In this document: piece after piece, positions 9,145-62,003 of the stretch
Layout of the letters: the number at the start of each line of letters is the position of its first letter
Position numbering within the stretch: the first letter of the stretch is position 1
Source of the DNA: Nitrospirota bacterium
Lineage (GTDB): Bacteria > Nitrospirota > Thermodesulfovibrionia > Thermodesulfovibrionales > Dissulfurispiraceae
Reading direction: 5' to 3'
Length of the DNA: 64,000 nucleotides
Assembly (NCBI GenBank): GCA_015233365.1
Contig: JADFXU010000003.1
Span: 41,307 to 105,306 of the forward strand
Position numbers and translations under genes: made by a program
The notes under the pieces: model-generated
What the model was told of the DNA's origin: nothing
The model's input: the letters and a program-made list of their open reading frames with translations, nothing else
The model's database searches: none

Positions 9145-10239
9145 ATGAAAGCTTTAAGAAGATATCTCAATAGTCAACGCCCTTCGTTGTTCGCGTTTCT
9201 GTCATTAGTTTGGGTCTTTCTCATCGGGGTTATTGATTACATGACGGGCGTACAGATTAGTTTATCTATATTTTATCTGATGCCCATTGCCTTTGCAGCC
9301 TGGTTTGTTGGGAAAAGAGTTGGTGTATCAATAGCCATTGCAAGCGTTGTAGCCTGGCTTTCCTGTGAGTTACTGTGGAACATCCCCTATTCAAACCCTT
9401 TTATCCCCTACTGGAATGCAGCGGTTAGACTGAGCGTTTTTATTATTATTGTTTTTCTTCTCTCGAAAATCAAAACGTTCAACCGAAATCTGGAAGAAAA
9501 GATACAAGAGAGGACTGCCGCTTTAATTGCGGAAGTTGACGAACGCAAACTGGCCGGGGAAAAAATTCTCAGTTATCAAAAAGACCTCCAAATGCTCATG
9601 CAAAGATTATCATTATTGGAAGAACAAAAAAGAAAAGAAATCTCCGAAGAACTGCACGATAACATCGGTCAAACCCTCGCTCTGTCAAAAATCAAACTCA
9701 CATCGTTGCAACAATCGACTTCTTGTCCCGATATCTCCAGTGAATTGAAAGAGATAAGAGAATTGATTGAGCAGTCGATCCAATTTACAAGATCCTTATC
9801 TTTTGAGCTCAGTTCTCCTATCCTCCACAAATTGGGTTTTATAGCGGCCATAAAGTGGCTCTGTGAGCATTTTAAAGAAAAATATGGGATCACGATTGAA
9901 TTCACTCACGATGATATTTTCAGGCAATTAGACGCTGATAAAAACGTTCTTCTTTTCAAAACGATACAGGAGCTGTTAATAAATATCGTCAAACATGCGA
10001 ATACACATATGGCAAGAATCACTATGACAAGCGAAGGCAACAACCTGCGGATTGAGGTCAAAGACGAGGGGGTTGGCTTGGATACTTCGAATGGCGATTA
10101 TAATAGAAAAGGAAGCCTTGGATTATTTATCATAAAGGAGCGAATAAATTATCTCGGAGGTACGTTTGAGATAGCCTCTGAACCCAAATGCGGAACCCGG
10201 TGCACCATAGTTGTTCCTTATAAAAGAGAGATGGTATGA
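9145..10239 (+). CDS. membrane sensor histidine kinase, HisKA_3 (NarX/LiaS-like) class
   Basis: 364 aa. Four N-terminal TM helices and a coiled coil. H-box ELHDNIGQTL (HisKA_3) and an HATPase_c domain (NIVKHAN, DEGVG). Confidence 0.85.
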   Translation: MKALRRYLNSQRPSLFAFLSLVWVFLIGVIDYMTGVQISLSIFYLMPIAFAAWFVGKRVGVSIAIASVVAWLSCELLWNIPYSNPFIPYWNAAVRLSVFIIIVFLLSKIKTFNRNLEEKIQERTAALIAEVDERKLAGEKILSYQKDLQMLMQRLSLLEEQKRKEISEELHDNIGQTLALSKIKLTSLQQSTSCPDISSELKEIRELIEQSIQFTRSLSFELSSPILHKLGFIAAIKWLCEHFKEKYGITIEFTHDDIFRQLDADKNVLLFKTIQELLINIVKHANTHMARITMTSEGNNLRIEVKDEGVGLDTSNGDYNRKGSLGLFIIKERINYLGGTFEIASEPKCGTRCTIVVPYKREMV

Positions 10240-15352: not shown

Positions 15353-15519
15353 ACCGGCATGGGCAGGCTGTTTATCGGCCCGCTAAAACTTACCTTACCA
15401 ACACAATGTTCCTTGAAATTGCGCTATTCGAGGACATTCTCGGTTGGGGCTCGGCGTTACTCGCCCCCGCTCCAGTACACCCGTGCTATCGTTCCAATAA
15501 ACAGCCTGCCCATGCCGGT
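15353..15519. repeat. foldback element E1: 23-bp perfect inverted arms around a 121-bp core
   Basis: ACCGGCATGGGCAGGCTGTTTAT (15353-15375) is the exact reverse complement of 15497-15519. The core contains an internal hairpin, CCAAC-A-CAATGTTCCTTGAA/loop/TTCGAGGACATTC-TCG-GTTGG. Confidence 0.9.
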
Positions 15520-26809: not shown

Positions 26810-27676
26810 TTACTGCTTCAATCTCTGTACCATGTACTCCCTGAAATCCCCGGCCAATTCCTTATTCCTGAGAGCAAAGTCAACGGTCGCCTTCAAATAT
26901 CCCAGTTTGTCTCCGGCATCGAACCTGTTGCCTCTGATCAAATAACCGTAAATCACACGCCGGTTCAGCAATGCCCTCAACGCATCGGTAAGCTGGATTT
27001 CGCCGCCGGCGCCGGGTTTCTGTTTTTCAAGAATATCGAAAATATCGGGCGTAAGAATATATCTTCCTATTATAGCCAGATTCGACGGGGCTACCTCGGG
27101 TTTCGGCTTCTCGACCAGATCTTTTATTCTATATACGTCCCCATCGAGCACCCCGTCGATAATACCATACCTGGACACCTCCGATTTGGGGACTTCCTCA
27201 AGGGCAATGACCGGGCATTTCAGTTCATCATACACCCGTATCATTTCCTGAAGCAGAAAACATTCGGGATCTATTACGTCATCGCTCAGTATTACAGCGA
27301 AAGGCTCATCTTTTACAAATGGTTTGGCACAAAGAATCGCATGACCCAGACCAAGCGCAACACGCTGCCTGATGTACGCAAAGTTGACATGGCTCATCTT
27401 GTTGATCTCCTCGAGCAGCTTCTTCTTCCCTGAGTTCCTGAGTTTCTCTTCCAGTTCATAAGCAGAGTCGAAATGGTCTTCTATGGCACGTTTATATTTC
27501 CCCGTTATAACCACAAACTCCTCGATTCCGCAGGCCATCGCCTCTTCAACAGCATACTGAATCAGCGGTTTGTCAATTATCGGCATCATTTCCTTGGGTG
27601 ATGCCTTGGTTGCAGGTAAAAAACGCGTCCCGAGCCCGGCTGCCGGGAATATCGCCTTCGTTATGTTTCGTTTCAT
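26810..27676 (-). CDS. galU: UTP--glucose-1-phosphate uridylyltransferase
   Basis: 288 aa. KAIFPAAGLGTRFLPATKASPKEMMPIIDKPLIQY is the canonical GalU N-terminus. Confidence 0.9.
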   Translation of the reverse strand: MKRNITKAIFPAAGLGTRFLPATKASPKEMMPIIDKPLIQYAVEEAMACGIEEFVVITGKYKRAIEDHFDSAYELEEKLRNSGKKKLLEEINKMSHVNFAYIRQRVALGLGHAILCAKPFVKDEPFAVILSDDVIDPECFLLQEMIRVYDELKCPVIALEEVPKSEVSRYGIIDGVLDGDVYRIKDLVEKPKPEVAPSNLAIIGRYILTPDIFDILEKQKPGAGGEIQLTDALRALLNRRVIYGYLIRGNRFDAGDKLGYLKATVDFALRNKELAGDFREYMVQRLKQ

Positions 27677-27710
27677 CAGTTTATCTCCCTGATTATCAGC
27701 GTTTAATTAG

Positions 27711-27795
27711 TGCCGGAGACGAGACTTGAACTCGTACGAAACTAGGTTTCGAGGGATTTTAAGTCCCTTGCGTCTGCCAATTCCGCCACTCCGGC
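27711..27795 (-). tRNA. tRNA-Leu (anticodon UAA), class II with a long variable arm
   Basis: The reverse complement is GCCGGAGTGGCGGAATTGGCAGACGCAAGGGACTTAAAATCCCTCGAAACCTAGTTTCGTACGAGTTCAAGTCTCGTCTCCGGCA. It has a 7-bp acceptor stem, anticodon stem AGGGA/TCCCT with loop CTTAAAA, and T-arm ACGAG-TTCAAGT-CTCGT. No encoded CCA. Confidence 0.9.
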
Positions 27796-27799
27796 TTCT

Positions 27800-27983
27800 T
27801 AGGGTGTGGTTACAGTTGAACTGGGCATTCCAGCATCTCAGCTTCAGACCATCTTCGGCCGGTCCTCAATCTCAAAATCCTCAATGTAGCTCTGCTACAC
27901 CTCCGGTTTTGCTCAATCGGATCGACCAAATCTGGCCCAAATCTGAGCGCTCTAATGCCCAGTTCAACTGTAACCACACCCTA
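27800..27983. repeat. foldback element E2: 30-bp perfect inverted arms around a 124-bp core
   Basis: TAGGGTGTGGTTACAGTTGAACTGGGCATT (27800-27829) is the exact reverse complement of 27954-27983. It starts 4 nt from the tRNA-Leu 5' end. Confidence 0.95.
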
Positions 27984-28140
27984 GTTAACTGACAAAAATA
28001 GCGCTATTAGAATACGATACTAGAAAACAACGTAAAGTGCAACTTTATTGTTCGTATAATTATATAATATACGAGCCACTCAATTCTCGTCCCGCGGTTT
28101 TTGTGTTAATTTTTTTTTGGGAATATTTGGAGGATATTTA

Positions 28141-29526
28141 ATGATAGACGACGGTTTTTTGCAGGAATTGTTGAAAAGGGCCCTTTCACATGGCGGTGAA
28201 TATGCCGACATTTTTATAGAGCACAGAGAGACAACATCCATACAGCTCGAGGACGACAGGATTGAAAAAGTAATCTCCGGTTCCTTCTCGGGCTTAGGCA
28301 TCCGCCTCATTTATAATGGGAAAACGGCATATGCCTTCAGCAATGATTTTTCGAAGAGTGTCCTTTCAGGACTGGCTGCCACGGTCAGCAAGGCTGCAAC
28401 AGATTCTGAACGGAATATCGTAATGGATATGAAACAGCAGCGGCCCGGGCTGGTTCTTTCAAGCAAAATACCTCCCGCGTCAGTGCCGCTGGACAGGAAA
28501 GTTGCATTGACAAGGCAGGGCAATATGGCCGCCCGGTCCATGGACACCCGGATTAAACAGGTTAATATCATTTACAGGGACTCGCTGCAAAAGGTAAAAA
28601 TGGCTTCTTCAGACGGCATCATCGCAAATGATGAGCGCTCATACACCATGGGGATGGCCCACGTCATCGCTGCGGACGGGGCTTCCATTCAGACCGGGTA
28701 TGAGGCAGCAGGGGGCCTTACAGGATACGAATTATTCGACACATATCCAATGGACACGCTGGCCGAAACAGCGGCCCGGAGGGCCGTCCTGCTGCTGGGC
28801 GCACGAAAAGCTCCGGGCGGCAGAATGCCGGTCATCATCTCCTCTGCTGCCGGAGGGACCATGATCCATGAGGCAATAGGACACGGCCTGGAAGCCGACC
28901 TTGCGAGGCAGGGCTTATCTGTTTACTCAAATAAACTCGGACAACGCGTGGCTTCCCCGGTTGTTACCGTCATTGATGATGCTACAATCCCTGACAAACG
29001 CGGGTCGTTTTCCGTGGACGACGAAGGTGTGCAATCCCAAAAGAATATATTGGTGAGCGAGGGCATTCTCAGCGGTTATATGTACGATAAATACAATGCA
29101 TTTATAGATAAAACCAATTCCACGGGCAACGGCAGGAGAGAATCTTATGAGCACAAGCCGATACCGCGCATGACCAACACCATGATCGCTCCGGGAAACT
29201 TCTCACCTGAGGAAGTGCTGAGGTCCGTTTCGAGCGGCTTGCTCGTAAAAAAGATGGGCGGTGGACAAGTGAATACCGTGACAGGAGATTTTGTCTTCGA
29301 TGTACAGGAAGGGTATCTCATCGAAAACGGCCGCCCCGGTGATCCGGTCAGGGGAGCTACTCTTGTCGGCAACGGCCCGGAGGTTTTATTGTCAATAGAT
29401 ATGGTCGCCTCGGATCTTGGTTTTTCCATCGGCACCTGCGGCAAAGATTCTCAGGGCGTCCCTGTATCAGACGCAATGCCGACATTGAGAATCCCCGAAA
29501 TGGTCGTGGGAGGAGAGGTAAGCTAA
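28141..29526 (+). CDS. tldD: metalloprotease TldD
   Basis: HEAIGHGLEAD zinc motif and PmbA/TldD-family length. ATG 28141 follows GGAGGA, so I prefer it to the track start 28117. Confidence 0.9.
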   Translation: MIDDGFLQELLKRALSHGGEYADIFIEHRETTSIQLEDDRIEKVISGSFSGLGIRLIYNGKTAYAFSNDFSKSVLSGLAATVSKAATDSERNIVMDMKQQRPGLVLSSKIPPASVPLDRKVALTRQGNMAARSMDTRIKQVNIIYRDSLQKVKMASSDGIIANDERSYTMGMAHVIAADGASIQTGYEAAGGLTGYELFDTYPMDTLAETAARRAVLLLGARKAPGGRMPVIISSAAGGTMIHEAIGHGLEADLARQGLSVYSNKLGQRVASPVVTVIDDATIPDKRGSFSVDDEGVQSQKNILVSEGILSGYMYDKYNAFIDKTNSTGNGRRESYEHKPIPRMTNTMIAPGNFSPEEVLRSVSSGLLVKKMGGGQVNTVTGDFVFDVQEGYLIENGRPGDPVRGATLVGNGPEVLLSIDMVASDLGFSIGTCGKDSQGVPVSDAMPTLRIPEMVVGGEVS

Positions 29527-60935: not shown

Positions 60936-61115
60936 AGTGTAATGAGGATATGTCCCTTCTGCTCAGGCGCTGCGTCTTGACAGTTCTAACGGCTCATTCG
61001 CTACAGTCGCAAAACTCGCCTTCGGCTCAGACATTGCGACTGCTTAACGCTCACTTCGCCGAGAACTGTTACCAAGACTCCGCGATTCGCTCCAGAGACA
61101 CATCCTCATTACACT
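60936..61115. repeat. foldback element E3: 19-bp arms (1 mismatch) around a 142-bp core that itself pairs along most of its length
   Basis: AGTGTAATGAGGATATGTC (60936-60954) pairs with GACACATCCTCATTACACT (61097-61115). Inner pairings are GTCTTG/CAAGAC, ACAGTTCT/AGAACTGT, CGGC/GCCG and CAGTCGCAA/TTGCGACTG. The arm mismatch becomes G-U in the minus-strand RNA. Confidence 0.85.
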
Positions 61116-61751: not shown

Positions 61752-61793
61752 GTTGGCGAATTGGATCATCAGAAATCTATTCGAAACTGATTC

Positions 61794-62003
61794 GTTGCAT
61801 CATTTAAAAATCTATCCAAGAGCAGGCGGGACATTGTGCCGTCGCCTTCGAGCAAGGCGGGATGCCTTCGCACCCCAAAAGTCGAGACTTTTGGGGACCC
61901 CGTTGCGAGATTTGAGCCGAGGCACTGTGTCCTGACTGCTCGACACCACTACATCGAACGCTAATAACCAAATATTCTCGAATAGATTTTTACGTGATGC
62001 AAC
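61794..62003. repeat. foldback element E4: 22-bp arms (2 mismatches) around a 166-bp core
   Basis: GTTGCATCATTTAAAAATCTAT (61794-61815) pairs with ATAGATTTTTACGTGATGCAAC (61982-62003). An extra AAATCTATTCGA (61773-61784) is complementary to 61978-61989. The core holds a perfect 9-bp hairpin, CCCCAAAAG-tcgaga-CTTTTGGGG. Confidence 0.85.

Follow-up and report, generated by a model that had tools for sequence, protein, structure and literature searches.

A long hairpin beside tRNA-Leu(UAA) that appears to belong to a multi-copy family of palindromic MITEs

What is a perfect 30-bp inverted repeat doing four nucleotides from the 5′ end of a tRNA gene, and how might the tRNA still be made? The question is raised by a 64,000-nucleotide stretch of Nitrospirota DNA (hereafter the window), in which tRNA-Leu(UAA) lies on the minus strand at 27710–27795 (ARAGORN; Rfam tRNA, 57 bits; alignments). 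The palindrome, termed E2, occupies 184 bp at 27800–27983 with arms and core included, and a gap of 4 nt (27796–27799) separates it from the mature tRNA 5′ end. The intergenic region is flanked by galU (26810–27676, minus strand) and by tldD, whose ATG at 28141 on the plus strand lies 157 bp from E2. According to both the sequence and a repeat finder, the left arm (27800–27829) and the right arm (27954–27983) are exact reverse complements over 30 nt including the flanking TA, and the repeat finder also gives wider arms of 35 nt with 94% complementarity (27800–27834 and 27949–27983). The 28-mer arm occurs at only two places in the window, with none expected from 100 shuffles. The geometry of the original prediction, with exact 30-nt arms, a 4-nt gap to the tRNA and divergent tldD about 160 bp away, is confirmed. 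Its statement that the core holds no ORF is also borne out, as the reading frames inside E2 (55 and 32 aa) are mechanical only and provide no coding capacity.

E2 folds as a single long hairpin. The minus strand, which is the sense strand of the tRNA, is the better-folding one (−116.5 kcal/mol, z = −15.5), compared with −93.5 kcal/mol (z = −14.0) for the plus strand. This gap of 23 kcal/mol means that numerous G-U pairs of the minus strand become A-C on the plus strand. Between the arms lies a conserved core of 124 bp (27830–27953), recognized by blastn and by comparison of core and arm identities, with the apical motif GCTACACCTCCGGTTTTGCTC at 27894–27914 on the plus strand. No Rfam family matched E2 at or above its gathering score. 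The sole sub-threshold match was to a plant miRNA hairpin, MIR6457, an identity that we rejected because its 36 bits compare with a gathering score of 140 and reflect a generic resemblance among long hairpins.

Could such a palindrome have arisen by chance, or through inverted duplication of local sequence in situ? The lack of any other copy in the window would fit this explanation, but no matches are expected by chance and more than 100 homologous copies exist elsewhere. The first homologue, obtained by low-stringency blastn of the window and four related loci, was a match of 82% over 98 bp at L004:17151–17248, a site unrelated to the tRNA-Leu junction. It covers the core of E2 and not the arms, and is bounded by a different 29-nt inverted repeat. 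Scanning contigs from one genome per GTDB species with the 21-nt core motif GCTACNCCTNCGGTTTTGCTC, which serves as the family search pattern, yielded at least 119 loci, and an nhmmer profile built from 98 copies (family alignment A2) gave 175 matches in the DNA of those loci. Within the window, the profile matched 27796–27983 with E = 6e-41, the sole family copy there. With the core match in L004, the loci from the motif scan and the profile matches in hand, we regard a chance or local origin as ruled out for all practical purposes.

The profile match and the fold energies place the MITE proper, from GGG to CCC, at 27802–27981 (180 bp). Full-length copies among the loci listed span 177–211 bp between the same boundaries, with a median of 179 bp; the copies contain no ORF and are almost all intergenic. 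Several genomes carry more than one locus (e.g., OY762941.1, JBAYZR01, JAHJDE01, and WFRQ01). As judged from these alignments, E2 is one copy of a widespread family of repeats of about 180 bp, with multiple copies seen in other genomes and a single one in the 64-kb window. The MITE reading put forward in the original prediction therefore gains support from homologous copies at unrelated loci in many genomes, and from five relatives in which the junction is empty, as described below.

Among the matches listed, the hosts are MAGs labeled Geobacteraceae, Geobacter, Oryzomonas, Desulfuromonadales, Syntrophobacteraceae, Desulfobacterales, Desulfobulbus, unclassified “delta proteobacteria,” Nitrospirota, and Gammaproteobacteria, and the family-bearing MAGs come from anoxic sediments and soils. 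Single MAGs labeled Planctomycetota, Actinomycetota, “Pedobacter,” and Promethearchaeota also carry the family, odd labels that may reflect bin contamination. The Promethearchaeota copy (L007) lies in the MAG of an Asgard archaeon. The “Pedobacter” MAG JBAYZR01 (Bacteroidota) contributes ten loci (L011, L016, L017, L025, L037, L038, L046, L072, L080, and L089) belonging to two subfamilies, the arms of one of which resemble the Geobacter-type subfamily. Copies in the Asgard- and Bacteroidota-labeled bins reflect either horizontal spread or mis-binning. The family is also a recurrent cause of assembly breaks in short-read MAGs: contigs end inside the element at L008, L015, L016, L041, L042, L062, L068, L070, L081, L090, L094, L104, L109, L110, L113, L116, and L122.

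The family shows no clear preference for tRNA genes: among the loci listed, only four have a copy no more than 400 nt from one, about the number expected by chance. Copies at L012:997–1187, L099:1813–1998, and L070:4163–4247 lie 74–238 nt away from genes for tRNA-Asn, for tRNA-Lys and tRNA-Glu, and for tRNA-Ser, respectively, and none of them abuts the tRNA as E2 does. An Rfam search of 15 family-bearing loci returned nothing, BLAST of PLSDB plasmids with E2 and with a Geobacter-type copy gave no match, and the characteristic strings of the family were absent from the full texts searched. By Rfam and the searchable literature, the family is apparently undescribed.

The flanks of the copies bear on how the family moved. 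Among the full copies listed, the 3-bp flanks are identical in 57 of 85, as TAA/TAA in 31 and TTA/TTA in 26. For the 62 listed copies with TWA on both sides, the match is direct in 57 and not in 5. Were the flanks part of an inverted repeat, TTA...TAA would dominate; it does not, and the flanks thus represent a 3-bp T(A/T)A target-site duplication. The middle base of the duplicated unit varies among copies and matches on both sides. At E2, the left trinucleotide TTA (27799–27801) occupies the position of this duplication and the right trinucleotide TAG (27982–27984) is a degenerate copy of it, giving an imperfect duplication. The edges of E2 read TA-GGG...CCC-TA, so the TA reported at both ends in the original prediction is present, as the part of the flanking trinucleotides that happens to be palindromic. 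The IS630/Tc1-type assignment drawn from it does not hold, since IS630/Tc1 elements duplicate TA and the unit of this family is 3 bp, TTA or TAA.

A direct 3-bp TWA duplication is a classic mark of a DDE transposase and a signature of the IS5 family (IS1031 and IS427 groups) and of eukaryotic PIF/Harbinger elements, to whose relatives the MITEs Tourist and mPing belong. Elements of the IS5 family generate a 3-bp TNA/TWA duplication, and their ends begin with GG(G), as do those of the E2 family. Most subfamilies further carry an A-rich, subterminal ..AATAA.. motif (..GCGAATAA.. / ..GTAAATAA.. of the family), which we take to resemble IS5/IS903-type ends, as a lead rather than a test. By its duplication, the family would be a MITE of the IS5/PIF-Harbinger style, mobilized by a transposase presumably of that type.

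A parent element was sought in the fetched loci. About 1 Mb of this DNA contained no cognate autonomous IS with matching ends. The ORFs bordering half-copies were a cytochrome gene and an enoyl-CoA hydratase gene, with no transposase among them, and no stray or solo family ends adjoined ORFs or transposases in the same loci. All-against-all clustering of the ORFs from the 119 loci listed revealed no recurrent transposase or other protein family. None of the inverted-repeat-bounded units of 0.6–3 kb encloses a transposase; the one unit of family type consists of two MITEs around amtB. In that unit (L049:1472–3758), the ammonium transporter gene (Pfam Ammonium_transp, E = 3e-121) is bracketed by two inverted family copies and the outer flanks are TAA/TAA, an arrangement that could represent either a composite unit or mere coincidence.

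When E2 arrived at the tRNA can be approached through related genomes. Homologues of the TldD encoded in the window fall in Nitrospirota, near Thermodesulfovibrionales and Dissulfurispira-like MAGs, with Dissulfurispira at about 70%. The galU–tRNA-Leu–tldD junction was compared between the window and contigs of six relatives (L001, L002, L004, L124, L125, and L126). Four of them retain galU, tRNA-Leu(UAA), and tldD in the same order without the element (L002, TldD 83%; L004, 80%; L125, 80%; L126, 76%). A fifth, the short contig L124 (TldD 82%), has tRNA-Leu(UAA) adjoining tldD, again without the element, and galU was not identified on it. In the closest relative, L001 (TldD 92%), a hairpin remnant of about 70 bp occupies the exact E2 site; its arms are homologous to those of E2, the core of about 110 bp is missing, and its flanks are TAA/TAA. 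The tRNA-Leu(UAA) genes of the window, L001, L002, and L004 are identical but for three transition differences. The comparison suggested in the original prediction thus distinguishes five junctions without the element from one with a remnant.

The simplest reading of this pattern would be a single insertion before the split between the window and L001 lineages, with L001 later losing internal sequence. Other family members have undergone internal deletion too, for instance at L118. Conceivably, two related subfamily members inserted independently at the same TWA site. We rejected the notion that the L001 hairpin is an older palindrome later invaded by the core, since arms and core go together in family copies; the position of TWA outside the arms, as in the L001 flanks, opposes it as well. 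The “very recent origin” that had been offered for the perfect arms is contradicted by a homologous-arm remnant at the same site in a relative with 92% TldD identity. As the remnant is shared, the insertion most simply predates the split, and the perfection of the arms needs another explanation.

The arms themselves are peculiar. Among the 88 full copies in the loci listed, those of E2 have the best complementarity and are also the most idiosyncratic: they are of the type GGGTGTGGTTACAG..., differ strongly from those of other family members, and lack the ..AATAA.. motif. Searching JGI metagenomes for arms of the E2 or L001 type gave one chance match, in coding sequence. Between E2 and L001, the arms differ by complementary changes (GGGTGTGG/CCACACCC vs GGACGTGG/CCACGTCC), and the L001 arms have decayed to 73% complementarity. 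If the insertion is shared, some 30% divergence per arm with no mismatch in E2 needs explaining. Selection on pairing, arm-to-arm conversion, and conversion from paralogous copies are candidate causes.

Whether E2 is transcribed depends on where the tRNA promoter lies. The original prediction left two alternatives, a promoter inside the element or a hairpin transcribed as part of a pre-tRNA leader. A block on the tRNA strand, AAGTTGCACTTTCC..TTTTTTAGTATCTTATTA, is conserved in all seven genomes and fits the sigma-70 pattern TTGCAC-N17-TATNNT. In the window, the predicted promoter spans 28014–28042 on the minus strand, with a −35 element TTGCAC at 28042–28037, a 17-nt spacer, and a −10 element TATCGT at 28019–28014, and the start site would be near 28007. 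In the element-free relatives, the block ends about 45–60 nt upstream of the tRNA 5′ end, a roughly constant distance. Its distance to tldD varies between 0 and about 300 nt; in L125 and L126 the block directly adjoins the tldD start codon. The near-constant spacing to the tRNA and the variable spacing to tldD tie the block to the tRNA and not to tldD, and it is very likely the tRNA-Leu promoter, as far as conservation and position can indicate. As a separate observation, L004 (~9760–9990) and L124 (~430–650) contain an extra 200–300 bp of reiterated TATAACC/GGTTATAGG-like units between the promoter block and tldD; this further variable repeat of the junction is absent from L125, L126, and the window.

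In the window, the promoter block lies 30 nt beyond E2. This distal position would put E2 inside the transcribed leader, lengthening it from about 45 to about 212 nt (predicted leader, 27796–28007, minus strand). E2 is thus most likely transcribed within the pre-tRNA leader and then removed. A predicted fold of 27705–28007 on the minus strand shows the E2 hairpin as a unit independent of the tRNA acceptor, anticodon, and T arms, with the 4-nt linker AGAA between the two. The hairpin lacks a following T-run, which argues against an intrinsic terminator. Of the two earlier alternatives, the leader is supported by this inference from seven genomes, and the promoter inside the element is disfavored by the conserved promoter-like block beyond it.

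A variant of the latter would have a hybrid promoter at the upstream edge of E2 drive tRNA-Leu, with the old promoter cut off and the full hairpin never made as RNA. A consensus scan returned a single promoter-like match involving E2, with a −35 element TTGTCA in the flank (27995–27990), a −10 element TACAGT in the arm (27972–27967), a 17-nt spacer, and agreement at 9 of 12 consensus positions on the minus strand. There is a precedent in Neisseria, where, in a passage of PMC2649163, Correia elements are described as creating promoters at their ends. The match in E2 is nevertheless weak, given that the region contains three such sites compared with 1.1 expected from shuffles, and its −10 is not conserved in L001 (CACAGT). 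Moreover, the ancestral block is intact 30 nt upstream, and no terminator stands between it and E2. We therefore consider a hybrid promoter very unlikely.

We consider it likely instead that E2 is a DDE-mobilized MITE that inserted in the transcribed leader of tRNA-Leu and was tolerated there. In this model, a non-autonomous palindromic element of about 180 bp would have been moved by a transposase encoded elsewhere, presumably a cut-and-paste DDE enzyme of the IS5/PIF-Harbinger type. It would have landed between the promoter of tRNA-Leu(UAA) and its mature 5′ terminus, in a common ancestor of the window lineage and L001. The leader of about 212 nt would be transcribed, with the element folding on its own into the long hairpin. 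Whatever the 5′ leader, RNase P removes it, and a perfect duplex of some 20 bp or longer is a substrate for RNase III; RNase P would accordingly free the tRNA, probably aided by RNase III cleavage within the perfectly paired 30 bp. The insertion would be tolerated because the leader is discarded anyway. The analysis shows membership in the family, its target duplication, the pattern of presence and absence among relatives, the location of E2 with respect to a conserved promoter-like block, and the independent fold; the parts of the model that we infer are the type of transposase, the transcription through the element, and the processing enzymes.

The unusual arms invite a different account, in which the hairpin was exapted as a functional part of the leader, for example by giving RNase III a point of entry or by regulating the supply of tRNA-Leu(UAA), and selection on pairing keeps the 30-bp arms perfect. 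Consistent with this account are the arm complementarity, the best of the 88 full copies listed, and the complementary differences from the L001 ortholog. The better-folding strand is also the tRNA sense strand, although an orientation match of this kind has a 50% chance of being accidental, and the base of the hairpin sits 4 nt from the RNase P site. Five related genomes nonetheless do without the element, and L001 has lost the core and let the arms decay. Perfect arms would also be maintained by gene conversion, whether from one arm to the other or with paralogous copies as donors. On balance, we think exaptation improbable, and we retain a tolerated MITE insertion as the preferred explanation of the locus.

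The family as a whole shows unusual features. In the loci listed, it is always the same strand that folds better, in each of the 88 full copies, and the two strands have means of −100.6 and −73.2 kcal/mol. For 41 copies sharing less than 88% identity, RNAalifold gives a 56-pair hairpin with compensatory double changes in 34 of the 56 pairs. In this set, 92.7% of pairing cells are paired compared with 80.6% in shuffles, none of 500 of which reached the observed value, and sliding the partners by one to three columns as a control leaves 31–45% of cells paired. The non-Watson-Crick cells are G-U in 321 cases and A-C in 37; G-U exceeds A-C in 32 pairs and the reverse applies in 9, and some G-U pairs are almost invariant. 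A symmetric internal loop, GAUUGA/GAUUGA, flanks the apical stem and is nearly invariant in A2. It occupies columns 75–80 and 127–132 of the alignment on the better-folding strand, corresponding to about 27871–27876 and 27918–27923 in the window, and could form tandem G-A and U-U pairs; the other strand would have pyrimidine-pyrimidine mismatches there.

The core is also conserved above the arms. E2 and its closest copies among those listed are 79–82% identical in the core and 39–54% in the arms, and family pairs with 80–85% core identity average 55% in the arms, figures in which core conservation is inflated by the search motif lying within the core and in which all copies share ancestry. Pairing favored on one strand and a core conserved above the arms are not predicted for a double-stranded MITE recognized by its terminal repeats.

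These features raise the possibility that the family is a mobile hairpin acting single-stranded, as RNA or ssDNA, with a functional core and arms that need only pair. The uniform strand preference, the pairing and compensatory changes, the excess of G-U over A-C with its near-invariant G-U pairs, the GAUUGA/GAUUGA loop, and the conservation of the core all speak for such an element. Several observations weigh against it. The direct 3-bp TWA duplication is the mark of a DDE transposase, common descent accounts in part for the conserved G-U positions, the search motif inflates core conservation, and paired changes in the arms are expected too if a single transposase must bind both ends. With respect to flanking ORFs, the copies furthermore show no orientation bias (21 sense, 15 antisense, 17 convergent, and 9 divergent; 21 vs 15 is not significant), which argues against selection through host transcripts. 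We hold a single-stranded mode of action to be a minority possibility, tentative yet worth keeping in view. If it applied, E2 would be a copy kept perfectly paired, by selection or arm conversion, that must leave an essential pre-tRNA. The preferred reading remains a DDE-mobilized MITE in the tRNA-Leu leader.

E2 is not the only long hairpin in the window. Others lie at 15353–15519, 60936–61115, and 61773–61989 (167–217 bp, with terminal inverted repeats of 22–33 nt); their sequences are unrelated to E2 and they have no obvious target duplication. The elements at 60936–61115 and 61773–61989 have partial matches of 80–93% at non-orthologous places in relatives (L004:13489–13908 and L001:14856–14921), so the clade carries several MITE-like families. 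Within the 61773–61989 element, a palindromic module, GCACCCCAAAAGTC..GACTTTTGGGGACCCCG, occupies about 61870–61902. The same module is nested in two E2-family copies from other Nitrospirota MAGs (L004:17257–17283 and L112), as if it were a separate mini-insertion.

Together, these results give a concrete and testable picture of a transposon lodged between an essential tRNA and its probable promoter, with 4 nt separating it from the point of RNase P cleavage. The locus offers a natural test of the structured-RNA load that a bacterial pre-tRNA leader can bear, and of the role of RNase III. In addition, a profile of the family would aid the annotation and assembly of its host genomes.

Several described groups of small palindromic repeats invite comparison. 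The ERIC/IRU sequences of enterobacteria are described in part of PMC3184786 as imperfect palindromes of 100–200 bp that are intergenic and often transcribed. These and similar palindromes have no sequence relation to the E2 family and occupy other hosts, and the E2 family has a clear TWA duplication. The MITEs of Thiomargarita were considered as well and set aside, as they have 10-bp direct repeats or TATAG.

Chunjie, from Geobacter uraniireducens Rf4, is 178–235 bp long with a hairpin of about −98 to −130 kcal/mol, according to a section of PMC3184786. Its 21-bp terminal repeats and 9-bp direct repeats, e.g., ACGACCGGT, are given in portions of PMC6042816 and PMC3184786. The E2 family is like Chunjie in its Geobacter host group, its size, and its hairpin stability. 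The description of Chunjie sets the two apart in their repeats, as the E2 family duplicates 3 bp, TWA, and not 9 bp.

Correia elements duplicate TA, measure about 104–157 bp, and are restricted to Neisseria. Their sequence is unrelated to the E2 family, which occurs in several phyla and duplicates TWA. In passages of PMC2649163 and PMC3184786, the Correia/NEMIS elements are portrayed as co-transcribed MITEs with long hairpins that are bound or cut by RNase III and that can affect the expression of adjacent genes. E2 is like Correia/NEMIS and ERIC-type elements in being a hairpin MITE with predicted co-transcription with a neighboring gene, and it is a member of neither group.

Tourist-like/mPing MITEs and bacterial IS5 elements share with the E2 family a small, non-coding form, terminal inverted repeats, and a TTA/TAA duplication; for mPing, a TAA repeat is noted in part of PMC6042816. 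Unlike these elements, the E2 family forms one full-length hairpin, has a core shared across phyla and arms specific to subfamilies, and came without an autonomous partner in the loci searched, and the arms of E2 itself depart from the Tourist/IS5 likeness in lacking the AATAA motif. A conserved core, subfamily-specific arms, and pairing favored on one strand are an unusual combination for a MITE.
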